Source: an uncultured Candidatus Saccharibacteria bacterium
GTDB taxonomy: Bacteria > Patescibacteriota > Saccharimonadia > Saccharimonadales > JAGQNJ01
Length of the DNA: 64,000 bases
Direction of reading: 5' to 3'
Assembly: GCA_964603625.1 (NCBI GenBank)
Contig: CAZRVM010000001.1
Coordinates: forward strand, 1,949-65,948
Shown: in pieces, positions 3,519 through 64,000 of the stretch
How positions within the stretch are numbered: the stretch's first letter is position 1
Layout of the letters: every line of letters starts with the position of its first letter
The notes under the pieces: generated by a model
Told to the model about the DNA's origin: nothing
Database searches by the model: none
Seen by the model: only the letters and a program-made list of their open reading frames with translations
Made by a program: the position numbers and the translations under genes

Positions 3519-3890
3519 TTATTTTTCGAAACTTTCAATTAACGAAAGCAAACTAAGTTGGTTTTCATTTACAATAACTTCGTTAACTACAGGTTCAAAA
3601 TTAGTTTCTAAAACCGATCTTTTATCTTGAATTAGCCTGATGGGCTGAACATTAGTTTTTTGTTGAATTTTAGAGTACATATCGGAATCAGATTGATCAA
3701 GCATAACACCCCATAAACCGTGAGGAAACATCATTTCAGGATCTAAACCTAAAAAAGTATTTTGATTACAGTAGTTTATAACACTGCTAAATGCTTCCTC
3801 TTCTGATAGTGCAGGTGCAATAAATTCTGCATCAGAATCAACAAAAACTTTATACCAATTATTTTCTTGGTTATATTTAAACATAAGCAA
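3519..3890 (-). CDS. hypothetical protein (123 aa) embedded within the tRNA cluster
   Basis: ORF only; no recognisable motif. Confidence 0.4.
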   Translation of the reverse strand: MLMFKYNQENNWYKVFVDSDAEFIAPALSEEEAFSSVINYCNQNTFLGLDPEMMFPHGLWGVMLDQSDSDMYSKIQQKTNVQPIRLIQDKRSVLETNFEPVVNEVIVNENQLSLLSLIESFEK

Positions 3891-22737: not shown

Positions 22738-23070
22738 TTACATTTTAATTTCGGCATCACAACCAGCCGGTAAAGATAAGTTCATTAAATTCTCAATGGT
22801 TTTTGGGCTTGGATCTAGAACATCTATCAATCTTTTATGTATTCTCATCTCAAATTGCTCCCGACCCTTTTTGAATACATGGGGGCTTTTTACCACCGTG
22901 TATGATGTCCTATCCGTTGGAAGTGGTACTGGACCGGCAATAGTAGCTCCAGTTCTAAGTGCCGTTTCTACAATTTTTTTGGCTGATTGGTCAATTATTT
23001 TATGATCATAGGCCTTTAAACGAATTCTTATTCTTGCTTTGCTACTTTCTGACTTTTTAGCTTCTGCCAT
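22738..23070 (-). CDS. rpsJ: 30S ribosomal protein S10
   Basis: [40 protein letters not shown]. Confidence 0.96.
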
Positions 23071-23483: not shown

Positions 23484-24665
23484 TTATTTATTTATCTTGG
23501 TTACAACTCCAGCTCCAACCGTACGGCCACCTTCACGAATAGCAAAGCGCTGTCCTTGATCCATAGCAATAGGCTGAATCAGTTTAACTTTAAAAGTTAC
23601 TGTGTCGCCCGGCATCACCATTTCTTTATCTGCAGGAAGTTCTACTTCTCCAGTTACATCAGTAGTCCTAAAGTAGAATTGTGGTTTATAACCCTTAAAG
23701 AATGGAGTATGGCGACCACCCTCTTCTTTAGTTAAAACATAAACTTCGGCATCAAACTCAGTATGAGGATTAATTGTACCTGGTTTTGCTAAAACTTGAC
23801 CGCGTTCAATATCATCGCGTTCAACACCGCGAAGTAAGATTCCAACATTATCACCAGCTTGGCCTTGGTCAAGGTTCTTCTTAAACATTTCTACGCCAGT
23901 AACAACACTTTTCTTAGTGTCTCTAATTCCAACTATTTCTACTTCATCGTTAATTTTAACGATACCCTGTTCTATACGACCAGTAGCAACCGTACCTCGC
24001 CCCTTAATAGAAAAGACATCTTCAATTGCCATCATAAATGGTTTGTCTAGATCTCTCTTTGGCTCAGGGATGAAATCGTCCATTGCCTTAACTAGATCCA
24101 TAACAGCATCCATATCTGACTCCGAGCCTTCTAATGCTTTTGTTGCGGAACCTTTGATAATAGGTGCGTCTTCGTCAAACCCATTCTTAGCAAGTAGTTC
24201 ACGAACGTCCATTTCTACAAGTTCAACAAGTTCTGGATCAGCTAGGTCCATTTTATTTAAAAACACAACTATTTTTGGAACACCAACTTGACGAGCAAGC
24301 AAAACATGTTCTCTGGTTTGAGGCATAGGGCCATCTGCTGCTGAAACTACTAAAACAGCTCCATCTACTTGGGCTGCACCAGTAATCATATTCTTAATAT
24401 AGTCGGCGTGACCTGGCATATCAACATGAGCGTAATGCCTTTTATCTGTCTCATATTCTTGGTGAGACACAGCAATAGTTATGCCTCTCTGCTTTTCTTC
24501 AGGCGCATTATCAATTTGATCATAATTGATAGGTTTATTTATTTCACTTGGAAGTCGTTTAGACAGCGTGTGCGTAATTGCAGCCGTTAGAGTTGTTTTG
24601 CCATGGTCAACATGACCCATTGTACCTACATTTACATGAGGTTTGCTTCTATCGAAGTCAGCCAT
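23484..24665 (-). CDS. tuf: elongation factor Tu
   Basis: [15 protein letters not shown] and [18 protein letters not shown]. 393 aa. Confidence 0.98.
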
Positions 24666-24777: not shown

Positions 24778-24981
24778 TTAAATTTCATCTGAGTTTTCTA
24801 TCTTTTCTATTATAGGTTCGTCTACTCCAATGCTAACACTAAGTTGGGTAAATGTATCGCTAATTTGGGCAACATGTTTAGTTAAAAGTTGCCCTATTCT
24901 TTTACTAAAACTTACCATAATTGATGAGTGCTGTTCTCTTATTTCAGACAATGGAACAATTGATTCTCTTTTACTACTCAT
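24778..24981 (-). CDS. hypothetical small protein (about 67 aa) between fusA and tuf
   Basis: The ORF fills the fusA-tuf spacer. The track ORF begins at a TTG (25014) that overlaps the fusA end; the first ATG is at 24981. No recognisable motif. Confidence 0.35.
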   Translation of the reverse strand: MSSKRESIVPLSEIREQHSSIMVSFSKRIGQLLTKHVAQISDTFTQLSVSIGVDEPIIEKIENSDEI

Positions 24982-24991
24982 AAAACTTAGC

Positions 24992-27079
24992 TTATTTAGA
25001 ATTCTTTGCAACAATTGCCTCTGTTACATGATTTGGCACATCTGCATAATGGTCTAATTCCATGCTAGAACCAGCTCGACCTTGTGTCATAGATCTTAAG
25101 TTTGTTGTATAACCAAACATTTCTCCAAGAGGTACAAAAGCCGTAATTTCTTTAACACCAGCTGAAAGATCTTCCATTGATTCAACTCGTCCTCGTTTGC
25201 TATTTAAATCACCAATGACATCGCCCATAAAGTTCTCTGGTGTTACAACCACGACCTTCATTATTGGCTCAAGTAAAACAGGGTTAGATCTTTTAACGCC
25301 CTCTTGCAAAGCCATACTTCCGGCAATTTTAAAAGCCATTTCACTAGAATCTACATCATGATAACTTCCGTCATAAAGTTCAGCTTTGATATCTACTACC
25401 GGATAGCCTGCTAAAACACCATTAGCCATAGACTCCTCAATTCCTGCTTTTACTGGATTAATATACTCAGCAGGCACCACTCCACCTTTGATTGAGTTGA
25501 TGAATTCAAAACCTTTTCCTGCTTCATTTTGCGAAAGTCTTAACCAAACATGTCCATACTGGCCTCTACCGCCAGATTGTCGAATAAATTTACCTTCAAC
25601 TTCGGTATTATCTTTTCTGATAGTTTCACGATAAGCAACTTGAGGCTGACCTATATTAGCTTCAACATTGAACTCTCGCTTCATTCTGTCTACTAAAATT
25701 TCAAGGTGTAATTCTCCCATCCCAGATATAATGGTTTGCCCTGTTTCCTCGTCTACTTTAATTCTGAAAGTTGGGTCTTCTTCAGCAAGTCTCTGTAGTG
25801 CTAAACTCATTTTTTCTTGATCGGCCTTAGTTTTTGGCTCAATAGCAATACTTACGGGTGGCTCTGGAAAGGTAATACTTTCAAGTACTATCGGATTATT
25901 TTGATCACACAATGTATTACCAGTAGTTGTGCCTTTTAAGCCAACAATGGCAGCAATATCACCAGCCTCAACTTCTGTTACATCGTCTCGTTTATCTGCA
26001 TGCAGGCGCACAATTCGACCAACTCGTTCTTTTTCTCCCGTGCTACTATTAAAAATATAAGATCCGGCTAAAATTTTTCCAGAATAAACTCTAAAATATG
26101 CTAATTTACCCACAAAAGGGTCAGATGTTATCTTAAAAGCTAATGCTGAAAACGGCTCAGTAATGCTTGGTTTGCGTTCAATTTCTTCATCTGTTTTAGG
26201 ATGCTTACCCCAAGTTGAGCCTACATCTAATGGACTTGGTAAAAAATCATTAACCATATCTAATACTTTTTCAACAATTACACCTCGACCATCGCCACCT
26301 GTTACCGGAAAGAATTTGCCTGTTAAAGTTGCTGTTCTTATAGCTTGCTTAACTTCTTCTTCGGTCAAGCCTTCTTCGCCTACTTCAAAATACTTTTCAA
26401 GCATTGTTTCGTCTTCAGCAACAGCATTTTCAATTAACAAGCTACGATATTTTTTAGCTTTTTCTAGCATATCTGCAGGGATTTCTCCTTCAACAAGTTC
26501 TTTATCGGAGAATTCTTTGTATGTATAGGATTTCATATTGATTAAATCCACTACGCCATTGATAGACTGTTCAAAACCGATTGGCAAGTGAACTGGAAAA
26601 GCATGCTTGTTAAGTCTGTTATGAATAGAATCTAACGATTTATAGAAATCACCACCCGTTTGATTAATCTTATTAATAAAGCAAATTCGTGGCACGCCGT
26701 ATTTATCTGCCTGACGCCAAACTGTTTCACTTTGCGATTCAACACCCATTTTGCCATCAAAAACTACGCATGCTCCGTCTAGCACTCGCAAGGATCTTTC
26801 AACTTCAACTGTAAAATCAATATGCCCTGGTGTATCAATAATATTAATTTGGTGATTTTTCCAAAAACAAGTTACCGATGCAGCCACTATTGTAATACCA
26901 CGCTCGCGTTCTTGTGCCATCCAGTCGGTAGTTGTTTCTCCCTCATGTACAGCACCAATTTTATGATTTAAACCAGTTCGGTACAGAATACCTTCAGTTG
27001 TGGTTGTTTTACCTGCATCAATATGGGCAATGATGCCCAAGTTGCGTATGTCTTTCATTTCTACTTTTTTATCTGCCAT
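24992..27079 (-). CDS. fusA: elongation factor G
   Basis: [20 protein letters not shown]. 695 aa. Confidence 0.98.
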
Positions 27080-27094
27080 GTTTTTCCTTTCTGT

Positions 27095-27433
27095 TTACTG
27101 ATTGTTCCATTTATTTACAAATTGTTCTTTGTCTGAAATTCCACCAAGTATTGAAAGCATTAGATTTGTTGCATCTAGAACTATTACTAAATTTTCTTCA
27201 GGGCTACTTTTATCACCCCTAATCTCTTCATTAAAAACAATCGCTGTACAATTTTTATCTGTAAATTCATGTTCGTACTTTAGCCCGCGATCAGTAATTG
27301 TAGAAAGTAAGCTTTCCGAATGTTCAAAAGGTGGCTCAATCCGAATATAGCCATAATCAAATGTTTTTTCACAACCAACAACAGCGGTGTATTCACCATG
27401 TTCTAATTTGTGATCAATTTCAATAAGTGGCAT
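27095..27433 (-). CDS. hypothetical acidic protein (112 aa) inserted between rpsG and fusA
   Basis: Exactly fills the rpsG-fusA gap (8 nt and 15 nt spacers). No confident family assignment. Confidence 0.55.
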   Translation of the reverse strand: MPLIEIDHKLEHGEYTAVVGCEKTFDYGYIRIEPPFEHSESLLSTITDRGLKYEHEFTDKNCTAIVFNEEIRGDKSSPEENLVIVLDATNLMLSILGGISDKEQFVNKWNNQ

Positions 27434-27441
27434 TATTCTAA

Positions 27442-27918
27442 TTACCTGGCAAAGTGGGCAAAAGCTCGGTTGGCTTCAGCCATCTTATGAGTATCTTCAC
27501 GCTTTTTAACTGCAATACCGGTGTTATTGTAAGCATCTGTAAGTTCTTGGGCAATCCTATCAACCATACTCATACCTTTATGACTTCTAGCCGATTGGAC
27601 AAACCACATAATAGTTAAATGCTGTTGACGCTGACCTTTAACTTCAAAAGGAATCTGATAGTTAGCACCACCAACTCTCCGTGAGCGCGTTTCGAGTTGT
27701 GGCTGGATATTTTTCATTGCTTGTTCAAAGATATCTAAAGGATTTTTGACTTTTAGTTTATCGGCAGATTTTTGCATTCCATCATACACTAATCTTTCGG
27801 CAAGTTGTTTTTTGCCATTAAGCATTACTCTATTGATAACCTTTTGAACCTGCACACTATTATAGATTCTATCTGGTTGAATATCTCTAATTAAAGACTT
27901 AGTTTTTTTTCTAGGCAT
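27442..27918 (-). CDS. rpsG: 30S ribosomal protein S7
   Basis: MPRKKTKSLIRDIQPDRIYNS... Confidence 0.96.
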   Translation of the reverse strand: MPRKKTKSLIRDIQPDRIYNSVQVQKVINRVMLNGKKQLAERLVYDGMQKSADKLKVKNPLDIFEQAMKNIQPQLETRSRRVGGANYQIPFEVKGQRQQHLTIMWFVQSARSHKGMSMVDRIAQELTDAYNNTGIAVKKREDTHKMAEANRAFAHFAR

Positions 27919-28162
27919 TTTTGCCTCCTACTTTCTTTATATAAGAAAAATAATCATTATATTCATTGTCTTCCTTAGCAATAGCTTGAACCGCTAAAGA
28001 TGCAAGCCCACATTGCAAACTAGGAATTGCTTCACATATATTATGACATTCAGACTTAAACGATCTTCCTGTAATTTCCACATATTGTTGATTATAATCA
28101 CACTCACCACAATCAGGTAAAGTTACATTATAATCTTCGGTTATTGGATAAAATTCAACCAT
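27911..28162 (-). CDS. hypothetical Cys-rich small protein (83 aa) inserted between rpsL and rpsG
   Basis: Its start overlaps the rpsL stop (TAATG) and its stop overlaps the rpsG start by 8 nt. Cysteines occur as CGEC...ECHNIC...C (C18, C21, C39, C43, C51). Confidence 0.55.
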   Translation of the reverse strand: MVEFYPITEDYNVTLPDCGECDYNQQYVEITGRSFKSECHNICEAIPSLQCGLASLAVQAIAKEDNEYNDYFSYIKKVGGKNA

Positions 28163-28575
28163 TATTTACCTGCCTTTTTTGTGCCATATTTAGAACGGCC
28201 TTGTTTTCGATTTTCAACACCCTGCAAATCTAAAGCTCCACGAACAATATGATAGCGCACACCGGGCAAGTCTTTTACTCGGCCACCACGGATCATTACA
28301 ACTGCGTGTTCTTGTAAGTTATGACCTTCTCCACCAATATAAGCCCATACTTCGTGGCCATTTTGCAACCTTACACGAGCTACTTTTCTAAGTGCCGAGT
28401 TAGGTTTCTTAGGTGTTTTAGTTGTTACCTTAACGCAAACGCCTCTTTTAAATGGTGATGGCTTTTCATAGTTTTTAGTTTTCAAACTATTCACCACCCG
28501 GTGTAAAGCCGGTGATTTAGATTTTTTAATTGTTTTAGTTCTAGGTTTTCGAACTAATTGATTGATAGTTGGCAC
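28162..28575 (-). CDS. rpsL: 30S ribosomal protein S12
   Basis: [12 protein letters not shown]... Confidence 0.97.
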
Positions 28576-28671: not shown

Positions 28672-31600
28672 TTAAATATCTGTTGCAACCTCTGCTTCAG
28701 TTTCTTGTTGAGTATAGGCATTAAAACCTGTACCAACCGGAATTTTCCTACCCAAAATAACATTCTCTTTTAAGCCAAATAAACGATCTACTTTACCACT
28801 TGTTGCGGCTGATATCAAAACTCTAGTAGTATCCTGAAAACTTGCAGCACTAAGGAAAGATTCTGTAGATAATGACGCCTTAGTTATGCCTAAAAGCAAC
28901 TGATTAAAGACAGCCGGAGCTTTATTTTCAGATTGCAATTTGTCATTTTCGGCCTGAACTGAGATTTTGCTAACAATATCACCAGTTACAAAATCACTAT
29001 CTCCAGCATCTTCAATTTGCACTCGGCTAAACATCTGTCTTACGATTATTTCTAAGTGCTTTTCAGCAATATTTTGACCTTGAGAAGCAAAAATCATTAG
29101 CACTTCGTTCATTATATAACGCTGTGTAGCTTCTACGCCCTGAAGATTAATTAATTCATGCAAGTTGATTGATCCATTAGTTAGCCTTTCACCAGCAACA
29201 ACTTCTTGACCATCCTTAACAAGTAATTGCTTGTTGCCTGGTATCTCATATTTTACTGATTTAGTTATATTTGGCTTTATTTGGATGCTCTTTTTTGTTA
29301 CTTTAGCTATTCCTGCCACAGAAGCTATCAATGGATTCGCACCTTTTTCTTCTGATGCAATTACATCGCCGATATTCACTAAACTACCAGATTCAATATT
29401 TGCTGTTCTTTGTTCTAAAGCCAACTTAGTAGTTTCTGCTTCTTTGGCATTAATTTCAACAACATAATGATCTCCATCTTCAGAAACTTTTACAACACCA
29501 GAAATATCTGTTAAATAAGCTTGACCTTTCGGTGTTCGAACTTCCAACAACTCTTCTACACGAGGTAAACCTTGAGTAATATCATCTGCTGCTGCCGATC
29601 CACCACCGTGGTACGCCCTAAGTGTTAGCTGAGTTCCAGGCTCACCAATACTCTGAGCTGCTATTACGCCAATAGGATGGTGATTCTCAACTAAACGACC
29701 CGTAGCTGGATCTATGCCATAGCTTTTACGGCTGACCCCTCTAACATTTTCACAACTTAAGGCACTCATTATTTTCACACCATCAATATTACCGTCAGCT
29801 TCTATTTTGTTAGCAATTTCAGTGGTAATTAATGAACCTTTTTCAACCAACTTTCCAACATTTTCAGCTGCATATCTACCAGCCAGTCGAGATCCATAGC
29901 TAACACCAATCTCTTCAGCATCTTTCCTATAAATTGCAAAACCTGGATCATCTTCGTCTTCGTCAATCGTAAATACGTCTTGACTAACATCTACCAAACG
30001 CCTTGTTAAATAGCCAGAGTCAGCAGTTTTTAAGGCTGTATCGATCATGGTTTTTCTAGTTCCTCTGGTAGATGTGAAATATTCTAGCGAAGTTAAACCA
30101 GCTTTGTAAGCAGATTTGATTGGAAGCTCAATAGCTCTACCGGTTGTGTCCATTGATACACCTAAAATACCGACCACCATTTTTACCTGGCCAATATTAC
30201 CTCTAGCACCCGAAACAACCGCAATAGACATAGCGCCATCATCTTTGGCGAATTGATCACTTAATGTTTGTTGCACATCGGCATCAATTTGTAGCCAATT
30301 CTCAACTGTTAATCGGTATCTCTCTTCTTCGGTAATGAATCCTTGATCATGTTGATCGCTAATTTGTGATGAATTCTGCTCTCCCTTTGCTATTATTGTA
30401 TCCAACCCTTTAATTTCACTAAAGTCGTCCATACCAAGACTTAAACCTGACTTGGTCGCATATTTAAAGCCTAAATCTTTTAATTTGTCGGCAATTTCAG
30501 CCGTAATTTCTTGACCATACATCTCATATGCTAAAGCCATAGCACTAGCTAATTTTTTCTTTGTCATTGCTTCATCTTGGAATGGGAAATCTTCTGGAAA
30601 TATTTCATTGAACAAAATTCTACCTAAAGTTGTAGTTAAATTCTGACCTCTAAAGTTAATACTTACAAATGACTGAAGTCTAATTTGGCTTGCATCAAGT
30701 TTCATTAAAGCTTCATCAAGGCTTGATAGTTTTTGTACGTCACTAGCTTTAATATCATTACGCTCATAAGTTAGGTAGTAACAACCCAAAACTATATCTT
30801 GTTCAATATGAAGAATTGGCGAACCATCAGCCGGTTTAAGCAGATTCTTGTTAGCAGCCATAATATCTTTAGCCTCTTTTTGCGCTAACTCAGTAAGCGG
30901 TAAATGGACCGCCATTTGATCACCGTCGAAATCGGCATTAAATCCTTTACACACCAATGGATGCAGTTGTATTGCCATACCCTCAATTAAGATTGGCTTA
31001 AAAGCCTGGACACTTAGTCTATGCAAAGATGGCGCTCTGTTAAGTAGTACATATTTACCACTAATAGCTTCGTCAAGTGCATCCCAAACAGGAGTTTCGC
31101 CCGCTTCAATCATTCTGGTAGCTGACCTTATATTATGTGCATATTCCTTTTCAATCAAACTACCAATAACAAATGGCTTAAATAGCTCGAGTGCCATCAT
31201 TTTTGGCAATCCACACTGATCCATAGTTAGCTCTGGGCCTGCAACTATTACTGAACGACCAGAATAGTCAACTCTTTTACCAAGTAGATTCTGACGAAAA
31301 CGGCCTTGCTTGCCTTTAAGCATATCACTTAAAGATTTTAGCCTTCGGCGTTGGCCAGTTGCGGCAACCGCTCTACCAGACCGAGCATTACCATTATCTA
31401 TCAAAGCATCAACTGCCTCTTGAAGCATTCTTTGTTCATTACGCCGAATAACTTCTGGAGCATTTAGTTCTATCAATTTCTTTAATCGATTATTGCGGTT
31501 GATAACTCGCCGATACAAATCATTTAAATCACTCGTTGCAAATCTTCCACCGGCTAGTTGTACCATCGGTCTCAAATCTGGAGGAATAACGGGCAGAACA

Positions 31601-32487
31601 CTTACACACATTGAACTAGGTTTAATATCTGCACGATCCATACTTTCAAGCAATTTAAGTCTTTTTAGTAGCTTCTTTTTTCGTTGACCTTTTGCATCTT
31701 CTGCTTCTTCACTCAGACTAGCTATTAAATCTTTCAGATTAATCTCATCTAGCAATTCTTTTAGCGCAGCTCCACCCATCCCAACTTCTATTAAATCTAC
31801 CAAATCGTCATCTAAATCATAGTAATCATTTTCATTAATTAAATTAAGCTTAACTAAGGATTCTGCCTGAGCTTTAAATGCTTCAAAACTTTGTTTTACT
31901 TCATCTAACTCTTTAGTTTGCATCTGCGCCAAAGCTTTTAAGTTAGCGTCTTCTTTTTTAGCTTCTTCTTCATATCTTGCTTTGATTGCTTCACAAGAAG
32001 CGTTAAATTGTGCTTCTTTATCTGCAAGAATTTGATCTCTTTTCGCCTCGTCAACTGATTTTATAATGTAATTAGCAAAATAAGTTACTTTTTCTAAACT
32101 TTTAACAGTTAATCCGAGTAGTAAACCAATGGCACTGGGAGCACCTCTAAGAAACCAAATATGTGCAACGGGTGCAGCCAAATTAATATGCCCCATCCGT
32201 TCTCGTCTTACGATACTTCTAGTTACAATCTCACCGTTTTTATCAACAGCAGCTTCTCTAGATCTCACGCCTTTGTACTTAGAGTCATAAGGATTTATAT
32301 CTTTAACCGGTCCAAAAATTCGTTCACAAAATAAGCCATCGCGTTCTGGTTTTTGAGTCCTATAATTGATTGTTTCTGGTTTAGTAACTTCCCCGTATGA
32401 CCAATCAAGTATGTCATCGGAACTAGCCACAGCAAGCCTAACAGCATCAAAATCTGAAATAGTTGGCCCATTATGATAATGTCTCAT
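28672..32487 (-). CDS. rpoC: DNA-directed RNA polymerase subunit beta-prime
   Basis: 1271 aa. [12 protein letters not shown] catalytic motif. N-terminal Zn-finger region. Confidence 0.98.
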
Positions 32488-35400
32488 TATTTATCCTCGC
32501 TTTCTTCATCAATGGTAATATTTTGGCCTGTATCTTTTACAGCTAAAACTTCAGCCGGTAAATGATCGTCTACTTCGATTAAGTCAAACTCATCCACACT
32601 AGAATCTGCAGACATATCAATCTCAGAATATTCTGGCGCAGGTACATCAATACTTGCTTGAGTTCTTGCTTCATCATTAATATTCACTGCCACAATTTCT
32701 TCTGCATCAATAAGCTTTTCAGACATCATTAAGTCTACTTTAAGCCCAAGTCCTTGTAATTCTTTTACTAATACATTAAAGCTTTCTGGAACCTTTGGCC
32801 CTACTATTGGAGTTTTTTTGATGATTGATTCATAAGCTTTAGACCGACCGTAAACATCATCTGATTTGATTGTTAACATTTCTTGCAAAGTGTTAGCAGC
32901 CCCGTAAGCTTCTAATGACCAAACTTCCATTTCGCCAAATCGTTGACCACCATTTTGAGCCTTACCACCTAGTGGTTGTTGTGTGACCATTGTGTAAGGG
33001 CCAGTCGATCGTGCGTGAATTTTATCGACAATCATGTGATCTAGTTTGATCATATACATACTACCGACTGTTGTTGTTTCAGAAAATGGTTCGCCCGTTC
33101 TTCCATCATAAAGCTGTTGTTTTCCGTTTCTTGGCAAACCAGCCTCAGCTAACAAATCTTGAATCTTATCAATCGACACTCCGTTAAAAGATGGCGAAGC
33201 AACCTTAAAACCTAAAGCTCTGGCAGCCATACCTAAATGAGCCTCAAAAAGCTGACCAACATTCATTCTACTTGGAACACCCAAAGGATTTAAAATTATG
33301 TCGATTGGCGTACCGTCAGCCATAAATGGCATATCTTCTACCGGCAAAACCCTAGCAATTACACCTTTATTTCCATATCGTCCACCAAGTTTATCGCCAA
33401 CTGCAATTTTCCGCATTTGTGCAACATAAACTTTAATTTGTTTTATTACACCAGCCTTTAACTCGTGACCATTTTCTTTAGAGAATATTTTTACACCAAC
33501 AACTTTACCATGTTTACCATTACTCATTCTTTGAGAGGTGTCACGAACATCTTTAGCTTTTTCGCCAAAGATAGCCCGCAAAAGCCTTTCTTCACTCGAA
33601 AGTTCTTGTTCGCCTTTTGGAGTAATCTTTCCAACTAAAATATCGCCAGGATGCACATCTGCCCCAATATGAACAATTCCATCTTCATCTAAATGCCTAA
33701 GTGACTCTTCTGAGACATTTGGGATATCTCTAGTTACAAGCTCAGGTCCAAGCTTAGTTTCTCGAACTTCTGTCATGTAATCTACAATATGTACCGATGA
33801 CAAAGTATCATCTTCAACAAGCTTGCGAGAAATAATAATAGCATCTTCAAAATTGTATCCAGACCAAGGCATGAAAGCTGCAATCAAATCTTTACCTAAT
33901 GCTAGTTCACCACCCTCAATAGACATACCTTCAATCAAGGAATCACCAGATTTGACTTTTTCGCCACTACTTACAACAACCTTTTGATTAATTGATGTTC
34001 CGTCATTACTTCTAGCAAAATGCTGTGGTTTGTAGCTAACTTTGCCAGCTTTTTTATAATCAATAATCACTTCATCAGCATCGGCCTTTAAAACTTGACC
34101 ATCTTCAATTGCTTGAAATATTTGACCAGTATTGCTAGCAACAACTCCCTCTAAGCCAGTACCGACTATTGGGCTTTGGGGCTTCACAAGGGGAACTGCC
34201 TGTCGTTGCTGATTACTCCCCATTAAACTTCGATACACATAGTTTTTCTCAATAAAAGGAATCAAACCAGCACTCGAACCAATTATTTGCCTTTTTGAAG
34301 CATCCATATGAGTAACTTCATCGGCATCAACATCACCCGAGACTAAACGATTTCGCGCTGAAACCCTTGAATTTACGAAATGCCCATTTTCATCAATTTT
34401 TTCATTTGACCCTGCTATTACGGCTTTTTCTTCATCGGATGCATCTAAATAAACAATATCTTTCGTAACAACAGCCTTGACTGGCCAAGTTGCCCTATTT
34501 TTAACATTTGATAGCTTTTTTGCATCACTTGCTGTAATTTTTTTACCAGCTTTTACAATTACTTTACCATCATTATCTTCTAAGTCTAAACTTGCTGTGT
34601 AGCCAACTGCATCCTTTGCCGTTACCGAATTAATAACTTTTACATAAGGTGTTTCAATAAAACCATATTCATTTATTCGAGCATATAAACTTAAATTCAA
34701 AACAAGACCAATATTTGCACCTTCTGGTGTTTCTACCGGACATATTCTTCCGTAGTGAGTCGCGTGAGCGTCTCTAACCTCAAAACCTGCTCTTTCTCGG
34801 TTCAACCCACCAGGCCCCATTGAACTTAATCGGCGTTTGTGAGCCAATTCACTCAAAGGGTTAGCTTGATCCATAAATTGAGATAGTTGTGAACTTGCAA
34901 AGAATTCACGAACTGCAGCAACGATTGGTCGAGCATTGATTAGCTGTCCAGGAGTAACTGTTTCAATATCACTCATACTCATTCGATCTTTAGTGTTTCT
35001 CTCCATTCTAAGCAAACCAATTCTAAATTGCCTTTGTACTAACTCGCCAACCAATTTAACGCGCCGATTAGCCAATGAATCGATGTCATCGGCTGGCTCT
35101 TGAGTATTATTAAGACGAATAATTTCTGCGACTATGGCCAGTAAATCTTCTATCCGCATTACTCTATTTTCAGTAGTGTTTGGAACATCTAAATTTAACC
35201 TTGAGTTAATTTTGTAGCGTCCAACTCTACTAAAATCAAATCTCTTAAAGTTGAAGAACATATTTTTAATCAGATCTCGGGCATTTTCAACAGTTGCTAA
35301 ATCACCGGGACGTAACCTTCGATAAACTTCAATCAAAGCTTCGTTTGAACCTTTAGCTGGATCTTTTTCTAATGTTGCGCTTGTGTAATTCAGCTTACCT

Positions 35401-36038
35401 TGATCAACATGAGATAGTTCTTGTTTGATTTGGCTTTCACTTAATCCAAGTGCTTTTAGAAGGGTAGTTACGGGAATTTTGCGCTTGCGATCAATCTTTA
35501 CATAAATTGCTCCACCAGCGCTTGTCTCAAACTCCAACCATGCTCCGCGACCTGGAATTACTTTAGCTCCATATAGTCTACTGCTTGTATGCTGTTCTGA
35601 AGTAAAGAAAACACCTGCCGAACGAATCAACTGGCTAACAACAACCCTTTCAGTACCATTAACAATAAATGTTCCACGACTAGTCATCCAAGGGTAATCA
35701 CCCAAGTAGATCTCTTGTTCTTTTACTTCACCTGTAATTTTATTTGTCAAAACTACTGTAGCTTTTAATGGTGCTTCAAACGAAATATTGTCATCCTTAG
35801 CTTCAGCTTCGGTAGTTTTAGGCTCTTCAAATTTATAATCTTTAAAACTAAGTGATAATTTTGTGCCTGTATAATCATCTATTGGACTAATTTCGGCTAG
35901 AAGTTCTCCCAACCCTTCATTTACAAACCAATAAAATGAATCATTTTGATGATCTACTAAGTTTGGTAAATCAAGAATCTCATCTGTTTGTGTAAAGTAC
36001 TTGCGCTTTGACGGCGCAATGCTAGTCGTTTTTGCCAT
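32487..36038 (-). CDS. rpoB: DNA-directed RNA polymerase subunit beta
   Basis: 1183 aa with conserved rpoB blocks; overlaps rpoC by 1 nt. Confidence 0.98.
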   Translation of the reverse strand: MAKTTSIAPSKRKYFTQTDEILDLPNLVDHQNDSFYWFVNEGLGELLAEISPIDDYTGTKLSLSFKDYKFEEPKTTEAEAKDDNISFEAPLKATVVLTNKITGEVKEQEIYLGDYPWMTSRGTFIVNGTERVVVSQLIRSAGVFFTSEQHTSSRLYGAKVIPGRGAWLEFETSAGGAIYVKIDRKRKIPVTTLLKALGLSESQIKQELSHVDQGKLNYTSATLEKDPAKGSNEALIEVYRRLRPGDLATVENARDLIKNMFFNFKRFDFSRVGRYKINSRLNLDVPNTTENRVMRIEDLLAIVAEIIRLNNTQEPADDIDSLANRRVKLVGELVQRQFRIGLLRMERNTKDRMSMSDIETVTPGQLINARPIVAAVREFFASSQLSQFMDQANPLSELAHKRRLSSMGPGGLNRERAGFEVRDAHATHYGRICPVETPEGANIGLVLNLSLYARINEYGFIETPYVKVINSVTAKDAVGYTASLDLEDNDGKVIVKAGKKITASDAKKLSNVKNRATWPVKAVVTKDIVYLDASDEEKAVIAGSNEKIDENGHFVNSRVSARNRLVSGDVDADEVTHMDASKRQIIGSSAGLIPFIEKNYVYRSLMGSNQQRQAVPLVKPQSPIVGTGLEGVVASNTGQIFQAIEDGQVLKADADEVIIDYKKAGKVSYKPQHFARSNDGTSINQKVVVSSGEKVKSGDSLIEGMSIEGGELALGKDLIAAFMPWSGYNFEDAIIISRKLVEDDTLSSVHIVDYMTEVRETKLGPELVTRDIPNVSEESLRHLDEDGIVHIGADVHPGDILVGKITPKGEQELSSEERLLRAIFGEKAKDVRDTSQRMSNGKHGKVVGVKIFSKENGHELKAGVIKQIKVYVAQMRKIAVGDKLGGRYGNKGVIARVLPVEDMPFMADGTPIDIILNPLGVPSRMNVGQLFEAHLGMAARALGFKVASPSFNGVSIDKIQDLLAEAGLPRNGKQQLYDGRTGEPFSETTTVGSMYMIKLDHMIVDKIHARSTGPYTMVTQQPLGGKAQNGGQRFGEMEVWSLEAYGAANTLQEMLTIKSDDVYGRSKAYESIIKKTPIVGPKVPESFNVLVKELQGLGLKVDLMMSEKLIDAEEIVAVNINDEARTQASIDVPAPEYSEIDMSADSSVDEFDLIEVDDHLPAEVLAVKDTGQNITIDEESEDK

Positions 36039-62791: not shown

Positions 62792-64000
62792 ATGCCTAAC
62801 CATGGTGAGAGATTTCTACATAATCAAGACGATAGCTTACATACTAGTGAACCCGTTGAACACGAACAAGCTCGTAGAGCTATTGCTAGTTTGCATGATA
62901 CCACTAATCAAGTAGAGCCAATTGATTCAGAAATTAGTCATAATTTAGGAGATGAAGTACATACTAAACCAGCAGATAAAATAGCTGATTTCTTAAGAGT
63001 ACTAGAACATAATCATACTAGCCATAGTGATGACCCAAGAGTACTAGATCGTATTAAAGCCAGCTACCATAAAACCCATGTTATTAAGCCAGAGGATGTA
63101 CCAGAGTCTGTCTTCAAGCTAGAACAACAAATAGCTCGTAATATGGGTCATGGCGACATTCCAATAACTGAAGAGTTCCGTAAAGCCAAAACAGAACAAA
63201 TCATTAGTACTCAAGAACATAGCCTAGATAAATGGGTAGACTACCTAACTAGTAGTGATGCTACCTACCCAATGTGGGCTAAGTACTGGGCATTTACAGC
63301 TATTACTAAAATGGGCAAATTAGAGAAGTCTGTTACAACAGACGAGTCAGGCAACGAACATGAATCAATTCGGTTTGCTAGAAGAACCGAAGATACTGTT
63401 GCTCCCTTTCCACCACTCAACCCCAGAGCCTTAGCTTTAACTATTGGAGTAGTAGATGAACACCTTAGCCAAAAAGGTTTACCTAAATTAGAACGAACAC
63501 CAGTTGTTAACCAATCTACCAAGCTAAACGATGAAGACTTTAGAGAGCTAATTATTAGTGAAAGCTTTAGCAGGATATATAGCCAGTTCTTATTAGAACT
63601 ACCCCAGTACTCCATAGAAGGCCTTAAAGAAACCAGAGGCGAGTGGAAGAAGTATCCTCAAGGTTCAGATCAGGATGAACTAGTAGATTCACTAGATGGC
63701 TACCCACTAGAGTGGTGTACTGCCGACCCAGAAACTGCTAGAGGGCAACTAGCCGGTGGCGACTTTTATGTCTACTATTCTATAGATCAAGATGGTAACC
63801 CAGTTATACCTAGAGTAGCCATTAGAATGCAAGGTAATCAAATTGCAGAAGTTAGAGGTATCGCTCCAGACCAAAATACCGATCCTTTCATTGCTCCGGT
63901 AATTGAAGCCAAGATGGAAGACTTCCTAGATGGTAAAGCTTACCAAAAACGCAGTCAAGATATGGCCAGACTTACAAACATAACGCAAAGAGCCGAAACT
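62792..64000 (+). CDS. hypothetical protein; 3' end lies outside the window (at least 403 aa); His/acidic-rich N-terminus; compositionally atypical
   Basis: Hand translation from the ATG at 62792 runs to the window end with no stop (MPNHGERFLHNQDD...WAKYWAFTAITKMGK...GDFYVYYSIDQDGNPVIPRVAIRMQGNQIAEVRG...). It is absent from the ORF track only because it lacks a stop. It has about 15 CTAG sites in 1.2 kb. Confidence 0.6.
   Translation, partial: MPNHGERFLHNQDDSLHTSEPVEHEQARRAIASLHDTTNQVEPIDSEISHNLGDEVHTKPADKIADFLRVLEHNHTSHSDDPRVLDRIKASYHKTHVIKPEDVPESVFKLEQQIARNMGHGDIPITEEFRKAKTEQIISTQEHSLDKWVDYLTSSDATYPMWAKYWAFTAITKMGKLEKSVTTDESGNEHESIRFARRTEDTVAPFPPLNPRALALTIGVVDEHLSQKGLPKLERTPVVNQSTKLNDEDFRELIISESFSRIYSQFLLELPQYSIEGLKETRGEWKKYPQGSDQDELVDSLDGYPLEWCTADPETARGQLAGGDFYVYYSIDQDGNPVIPRVAIRMQGNQIAEVRGIAPDQNTDPFIAPVIEAKMEDFLDGKAYQKRSQDMARLTNITQRAET

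Follow-up and report, generated by a model that had tools for sequence, protein, structure and literature searches.

How does the str operon, one of the best-conserved bacterial gene arrangements, come to host a protein family without detectable relatives, in a slot prone to turnover? The question is raised by an open reading frame (ORF) of 112 amino acids (aa), here called ORF112, between the genes for ribosomal protein S7 (rpsG) and elongation factor EF-G (fusA) in an uncultured Candidatus Saccharibacteria bacterium (assembly GCA_964603625.1, contig CAZRVM010000001.1, positions 1,949 to 65,948; these 64,000 nucleotides (nt) are the window referred to throughout). The window comprises the rpoBC–str–S10–spc ribosomal super-operon of a Saccharibacterium (GC content, 35%), with the minus-strand gene order rpoB, rpoC, rpsL, ORF83, rpsG, ORF112, fusA, a small ORF, tuf and rpsJ. 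We find that ORF112 is a real gene in an exchangeable position and, much more tentatively, suggest that it is an exchangeable accessory gene whose product binds a translation component encoded on the same messenger RNA (mRNA), a reading to which, cassette framing included, we assign a probability of about 40%.

The coordinates, sequence and acidity of ORF112 (isoelectric point (pI) 4.62; 21 aspartate and glutamate versus 10 lysine and arginine residues) agree with the initial annotation, and the product lacks a hydrophobic N-terminus. From the GC content, the chance of a 112-codon open frame is approximately 3 × 10−4 per frame. In codon-level comparisons with relatives of 68 and 71% protein identity, the ratio of non-synonymous to synonymous substitution rates (dN/dS) was 0.225 and 0.147, respectively, at dS values of 0.9–1.3 (rpsG, in the same comparisons, 0.03–0.05). 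Because of these ratios, the conservation of its family and a confident AlphaFold2 fold (both below), we conclude that ORF112 is a genuine gene under purifying selection. An ORF present by chance, or a non-coding spacer that acts as RNA, would have nothing in its favour beyond the short length and the absent annotation, and is already refuted by dN/dS of 0.15–0.23 at dS near 1, by amino-acid conservation across 24 sequences and by the confident fold; Rfam and transfer RNA scans of the region returned no match. The window contains no second copy of the gene.

ORF112 belongs to a small family. Three relatives (98, 71 and 68% identity) came from a word-indexed search of 5.8 billion proteins, and an exhaustive phmmer search of 1.84 billion cluster representatives gave 18 matches at E ≤ 1 × 10−3, of which 15 are 111–119 aa long and align over essentially their full length; the others are a shorter protein (98 aa, divergent in its final ~18 residues) and two unconvincing matches, one a repeat protein of 354 aa that we take to be spurious, the other a fragment of 66 aa. 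With five further sequences from a profile search, the family comprises approximately 24 proteins of 110–119 aa. Five positions are invariant in the 24-sequence alignment (M1, A17, G28, P34 and P35) and six more are conserved in at least 90% of members (G13, R31, T63, L93, L96 and F105), as is W109 in a 20-sequence alignment, giving the signature MP.FE...EHGPY.A.IG......G.IRIEPPF.PGE......LL..LG......F..YW. for the family. No invariant set of catalytic-type residues is present; conservation among polar residues comes down essentially to R31 and T63, and E33 is frequent. The family is unnamed ('hypothetical protein' where sources label it), restricted to one Saccharibacteria sub-clade, and without a detectable sequence relative or a significant structural neighbour. 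Literature searches yielded no account of the gene, nor of inserts in the str operon of Saccharibacteria. Each of the 24 members is acidic (pI 4.07–5.11) and the family is cytoplasmic.

Structure prediction gained greatly from the larger alignment, the predicted local distance difference test score (pLDDT) being 61 with four sequences and 89.5 with 24 (predicted template modelling score, 0.82). The model predicts a compact alpha/beta domain, a five-stranded antiparallel sheet with three helices, in which strands (b) and helices (a) follow each other as b(3–5), b(16–21), b(27–33), a(40–47), b(52–58), b(63–68), a(78–100) and a(102–110). Conservation within the family peaks in the motif G.IRIEPPF (residues 28–36), which would lie on the third strand and the loop that follows it.

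The position of the gene is fixed. Genomic neighbourhoods could be read for ten distinct members (the window protein, P0002, P0003, P0009, P0014, P0019, P0022, P0023, P0024 and P0025; P0001, also readable, is almost the same protein as that of the window), and in all ten the family gene lies directly 3′ of rpsG, conserved in this slot down to 25–28% identity; no copy outside it was seen in the neighbourhoods read. The distance from the rpsG stop to the ATG is 0–30 nt across family loci, and in all but one of them fusA follows after 9–21 nt, with its own Shine–Dalgarno-like AAGG or GGAG kept. In the window, the spacers of 8 nt (27434–27441) and 15 nt (27080–27094) are exactly as the initial annotation reported, and its proposal of co-transcription with the str operon gains support: they are too short for a promoter or terminator of the gene's own, and a promoter and terminator consensus scan found such signals no commoner than in shuffled sequence. 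Because the spacers are short, the position fixed and these signals not in excess, we infer that ORF112 lacks its own promoter, is co-transcribed with the str operon and is translated by coupling to rpsG termination or by re-initiation. The final arginine codon of S7 is usually AGG, which could serve as a Shine–Dalgarno-like element for the next gene. The features discussed here are listed in Table 1.

Table 1 Coordinates of ORF112, its sequence elements and the neighbouring genes in the window
Feature	Coordinates	Strand	Remarks
ORF112	27095..27433	minus	112 aa, ATG start; from the ORF list and the raw sequence
rpsG	27442..27918	minus	ribosomal protein S7, 158 aa, pI 10.3; lies upstream of the family gene in all contexts read
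fusA	24992..27079	minus	EF-G, 695 aa; downstream neighbour of ORF112
rpsG–ORF112 junction	27434..27447	minus	AGG (final rpsG codon), TAA, 8-nt spacer TTAGAATA, then ATG
ORF112–fusA spacer ACAGAAAGGAAAAAC	27080..27094	minus	15 nt; contains AAAGGA, of which AAGGA is Shine–Dalgarno-like for fusA
Codons 28–33 (G-Y-I-R-I-E) of ORF112	27335..27352	minus	part of the motif G.IRIEPPF, residues 28–36
rpoB	32487–36038	minus	
rpoC	28672–32487	minus	
rpsL	28162–28575	minus	
ORF83	27911–28162	minus	between rpsL and rpsG
Small ORF after fusA	24778–24981	minus	
tuf	23484–24665	minus	
rpsJ	22738–23070	minus	

The content of the rpsG–fusA slot varies strongly among relatives. The two genes had been described as normally contiguous, which holds for more than 50 loci of other phyla (gap mostly ~10–110 nt, maximum 274 nt) and fails for Saccharibacteria. 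The closest species representatives by S7 were metagenome-assembled genomes of Candidatus Saccharibacteria/Saccharimonadales (58–84% identity), and a search of all six-frame ORFs of loci L013–L092 with hmmsearch showed the ORF112 family to be absent there, including L013–L021, with S7 proteins 68–84% identical to that of the window. In some of these loci the slot is empty (gaps of 2 nt in L014, 15 nt in L017 and 60 nt in L020); in others it holds a single ORF (75 aa in a gap of 250 nt in L015, 110 aa in 361 nt in L019 and 125 aa in 391 nt in L018) or two ORFs (90 and 116 aa in 660 nt in L013; 164 and 117 aa in 863 nt in L021). These alternative occupants are unrelated to one another as well as to ORF112; that they might be diverged members of its family was considered and rejected, with scores of at most 0.9 bits in hmmsearch with filters off and nothing in all-against-all BLASTP. 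In more distant Saccharibacteria, with Nanosynbacter/Minimicrobia-like genomes (L028, L029, L030 and L034), the slot contains DUF520/YajQ, alone or with other genes, ~80–120 nt after rpsG in L029, L030 and L034 and ~2.6 kb downstream in L028 (E = 3.2 × 10−49 to Pfam DUF520, PF04461, for the L029 ORF, a positive control for the lack of such matches in the ORF112 family); the L034 copy is apparently split by a frameshift. Four further loci (L022 and L025–L027) have no fusA within 3.5 kb of rpsG. In a neighbour-joining tree of EF-G, which is not a robust phylogeny, carriers of the ORF112 family are interleaved with non-carriers. Because carriers interleave with lineages that have an empty slot or an unrelated acidic ORF, comparison shows that, over evolutionary time, the gene can be dispensed with and replaced.

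Signs of exchange are also seen in evolutionary rate and composition and, at one locus, in sequence. Between loci, identity is 28–71% for the ORF112 family, compared with 87–96% for S12, 81–90% for S7 and 83–93% for EF-G, and GC content at third codon positions (GC3) is lower in the family gene than in both neighbours at 7 of 7 loci (for example, 0.32 versus 0.53–0.58 in L009). In locus L099, the gene order is S12, orf73, S7, ORF114 (family member P0014), orf154 (unrelated, 154 aa) and fusA, and between ORF114 and orf154 (L099:1287–1352) lies an in-frame chimera in which MAEKKYPLDQI is joined to NRALAHFARF and a stop codon. The first part resembles the beginning of fusA, with 30 of 39 nt shared with the genuine gene start, and the second corresponds to the final ten rpsG codons, with 28 of 33 nt shared with the genuine gene end, such that the chimera looks like a fusA-5′/rpsG-3′ recombination scar; a Campbell-type insertion of a circularised rpsG-3′–orf154–fusA-5′ segment, by crossover at the 5′ end of fusA, would leave just such a scar. 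The scar, the sole one among the loci examined and found on one metagenomic contig, indicates that cassettes enter by recombination through conserved gene ends; a second contig (sample 3300067032), compared at the level of gene order, has the same arrangement. On these observations, the rpsG–fusA junction of Saccharibacteria acts like a slot for gene cassettes.

What, then, might the product do? In the reading that we favour, ORF112 would be a lineage-restricted accessory gene of one Saccharibacteria sub-clade, its slot filled by cassettes that probably recombine in at the conserved gene ends on either side, and it would be read from the str mRNA by rpsG-coupled translation and so be made alongside S7 and EF-G. 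Its product would be a small acidic protein-binding module with a basic partner, which is the weakest step of the proposal, and that partner would most plausibly be a translation component from the same mRNA, namely S7, S12 (pI 11.2) or EF-G. Rather than being an enzyme or a ribosomal protein that binds ribosomal RNA (rRNA), the protein may escort or modulate its partner; its composition argues against rRNA binding, and its only recurrent, if weak, fold neighbours are the acidic peptide-binding adaptors YbjN, ExsC and SchA. All 11 of the unrelated small ORFs at the str junctions of relatives are likewise acidic (pI 4.4–5.3), compared with only 12% of window genes at a pI below 5.4, which hints at selection for acidity in whatever fills these slots. 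In eukaryotes, the small acidic escorts Yar1 (for uS3) and Tsr2 (for eS26) shield very basic ribosomal proteins before assembly, an analogy to the proposed mode of action that is functional only and implies no homology; we know of no dedicated ribosomal-protein escort of this kind that is established in bacteria. Closer in genomic setting is YbxF, a small, dispensable, ribosome-associated L7Ae-like protein encoded within the str cluster of Bacillus subtilis, in the rpoC–rpsL region, which differs in being basic, RNA-binding and a member of a known family, whereas ORF112 is acidic and has no family. Were ORF112 to bind S7, S12 or EF-G, it would illustrate something rare in bacteria, a lineage-specific protein dedicated to one core component of translation, in a phylum with ribosomes already known to be atypical: those of Patescibacteria have altered rRNA and lack three conserved proteins, and these bacteria rely unusually on translation regulators (PMC11665869).

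Several results weigh against such a role. Gene position is the sole link of ORF112 to translation, and the junction also takes genes without an obvious translation role and is broken altogether in some Saccharibacteria, so the position may reflect merely a permissive, well-expressed site. The 12% background used to judge acidity comes from a ribosomal-protein-rich window and not from a whole proteome. With all loci included, no S7, S12 or EF-G residue tracked the presence of ORF112, in a comparison of low power; four EF-G columns had separated carriers from non-carriers in a partial set, and all of them (three N-terminal columns and column 664) failed on the full set, leaving no sign of co-adaptation. 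A GC3 below that of S7 and EF-G points to weaker translational selection on the family gene, and the similarity to secretion chaperones is insignificant by the values given below. The length of S7 also differs, being 158 aa (ending in AHFAR) in 6 of the 7 carriers compared and 159 aa (AHFAR plus one residue) in the seventh, L012. Of the 11 non-carriers examined, 10 (all but L020) have the longer form, and so do carriers L095, L096 and L099; the difference is therefore not strict.

Known families and folds offer few alternatives. The initial annotation had reported no nameable motif, with which our searches agree: the ORF112 protein had no match in Pfam or NCBIfam at E ≤ 10, 20 family members had no consistent Pfam match at E ≤ 1 (none to RsfS, YbjN, a chaperone or DUF520), the best match among PDB sequences (AVR-Pia, E = 0.83) was noise and the family profile matched none. 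It had also seen in the C-terminal pattern a faint likeness to the ribosome silencing factor RsfS/Iojap, a protein of ~105–115 aa and, to our knowledge, near-universal among bacteria. Apart from that perceived pattern, a similar size (~110 aa) and an operon context that would allow a link to translation, nothing connects the two: PF02410 was not matched at E ≤ 10 by the window protein or at E ≤ 1 by the 20 members, hhalign of the family profile against Escherichia coli RsfS gave a probability of 0.05% over 7 aligned columns, and no RsfS chain was among the top 50 Foldseek matches in the PDB. The family, unlike RsfS, is moreover patchy even within one Saccharibacteria sub-clade. A role of this type is refuted at the level of homology, and we regard it as extremely improbable overall. 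DUF520/YajQ, which shares the junction in other Saccharibacteria, differs in belonging to an unrelated family and in its size and charge (164 aa, pI 6.4). A secretion-chaperone-like dimeric adaptor of the YbjN/CesT type, serving a specific secreted or assembled client and unconnected with the ribosome, finds some encouragement in the Foldseek search of the confident model, whose PDB list is headed by YbjN (6vu7), ExsC (3kxy) and SchA (4g6t), followed by Rpb11-like subunits; ExsC also came first for the earlier low-confidence model. These proteins (110–140 aa) resemble ORF112 in being small, acidic, cytoplasmic and alpha/beta, and its order of elements, b-b-b-a-b-b-a, agrees with what we take to be the YbjN/chaperone fold minus its N-terminal helix. 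The matches are nonetheless below significance (E = 0.05–0.1, template modelling scores of 0.34–0.40; none at E ≤ 1 × 10−3 in the PDB or BFVD), ORF112 lacks that N-terminal helix and has an extra C-terminal one, a sequence relation is missing (hhalign against E. coli YbjN, 1.6%) and no client or secretion gene was found nearby. Homology to YbjN was accordingly rejected, leaving a weak fold resemblance that is a lead and not a sign of membership, and this function appears quite improbable.

Two further accounts take the genomic position as their starting point. ORF112 might be a new lineage-specific structural ribosomal protein that offsets the reduced ribosome of Patescibacteria, which lacks three conserved proteins and has altered rRNA (PMC11665869); its location inside the str operon and its coupling to S7 would fit. 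The pI of the family (4.1–5.1) is, however, far from that of the window's small ribosomal-protein genes (9.5–11.7), the gene evolves far faster than those of S7 and EF-G, and the family is lost or replaced in close relatives whose S7 is 81–84% identical, all of which makes this very improbable. The more serious competitor, possible if still doubtful, is that ORF112 is a hitch-hiking accessory gene without a translation role, the junction being a permissive landing site, under strong and constitutive expression, whose highly conserved flanks act as recombination arms, and the slot proteins serving in conflict or host interaction (for example, as immunity- or antitoxin-like binders of basic toxins, or as nucleic-acid mimics). 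Saccharibacteria are naturally competent, and known immunity proteins and DNA mimics are acidic, as are all the small slot ORFs. The turnover of slot content among close relatives (unrelated ORFs, DUF520 and multi-gene inserts), the L099 scar, the fast evolution of the family, its GC3 below that of the flanks and the lack of carrier-specific residues in S7, S12 and EF-G all fit this account, as does the presence of variable small ORFs at the S12–S7 and fusA–tuf junctions. What speaks against it is that the family has kept its exact slot through divergence to 25–28% identity, that no toxin gene is adjacent, and that defence and phage databases were negative throughout: PADLOC and PHROGs gave no consistent family for 24 members (matches of single members, best E = 0.0024 and 6.4 × 10−4), IMG/VR viral contigs held no match to the family motif and BFVD no structural neighbour at E ≤ 1 × 10−3, such that a defence or phage origin was rejected. 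A metagenome scan for the pattern GxIRIEPPF returned 59 matches, approximately the chance expectation, and none was confirmed.

A broader version of the binding hypothesis would have the str junctions (S12–S7, S7–EF-G and EF-G–EF-Tu) form a cassette-exchange hotspot for small acidic binders of the translation machinery, a previously unrecognised class in which the ORF112 family would be the oldest and most widespread, with roles in escort, modulation or toxin protection tuned to an epibiotic lifestyle; we consider this unlikely. Should ORF112 not bind a translation component, the locus would instead suggest that, in these ultra-small, competent episymbionts, conserved core genes provide the recombination arms by which highly expressed accessory genes are traded. 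In either case the family lends itself to experiments, being compact (112 aa in the window) and having a confidently predicted model.

Other small ORFs occur at the str junctions of the window and its relatives. The initial annotation had counted ORF112 and the Cys-rich ORF83 as two genes of no assigned function embedded among S12, S7 and EF-G; both are present, and a view of this arrangement as special has to be tempered, because Saccharibacteria junctions often hold variable small ORFs. ORF83 is an orphan that had only one homologue (99% identity) in the word-indexed search of 5.8 billion proteins and is absent from L001 and L002, the loci of the 68–71% relatives, where rpsL and rpsG abut. 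Acidic Cys-rich ORFs that share the motif C.VTNK[DE]C occupy the S12–S7 slot of L016 (78 aa) and L099 (73 aa), and are only 24–29% identical to ORF83. The small ORF after fusA encodes 67 aa from an ATG at 24981 and begins 10 nt past the fusA stop; its weakly conserved family (65–70 aa) was found behind fusA in the window, L001, L002, L003 and L008 and in no other locus. A partnership with ORF112 was rejected: all loci with the post-fusA ORF also carry ORF112, but L005, L009 and L012 have ORF112 alone. Elsewhere in the window, two minus-strand ORFs, at 3519–3890 (123 aa, pI 4.27) and 63265–63615 (116 aa, pI 9.5), had no Pfam match. Interruptions affect other junctions of the super-operon in relatives as well. 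In L001, the tuf call is only 140 aa long and is followed by ~1 kb without a called gene (L001:12828–14214), and a 926-aa NHL-repeat protein lies between rpsJ and rplC; ORFs of 109 and 97 aa lie around rpsJ in L012 (10002–11393); and in L009 (8493–11556) and L010, a glycosyltransferase gene on the opposite strand and a glycoside-hydrolase-like gene lie between fusA and tuf.
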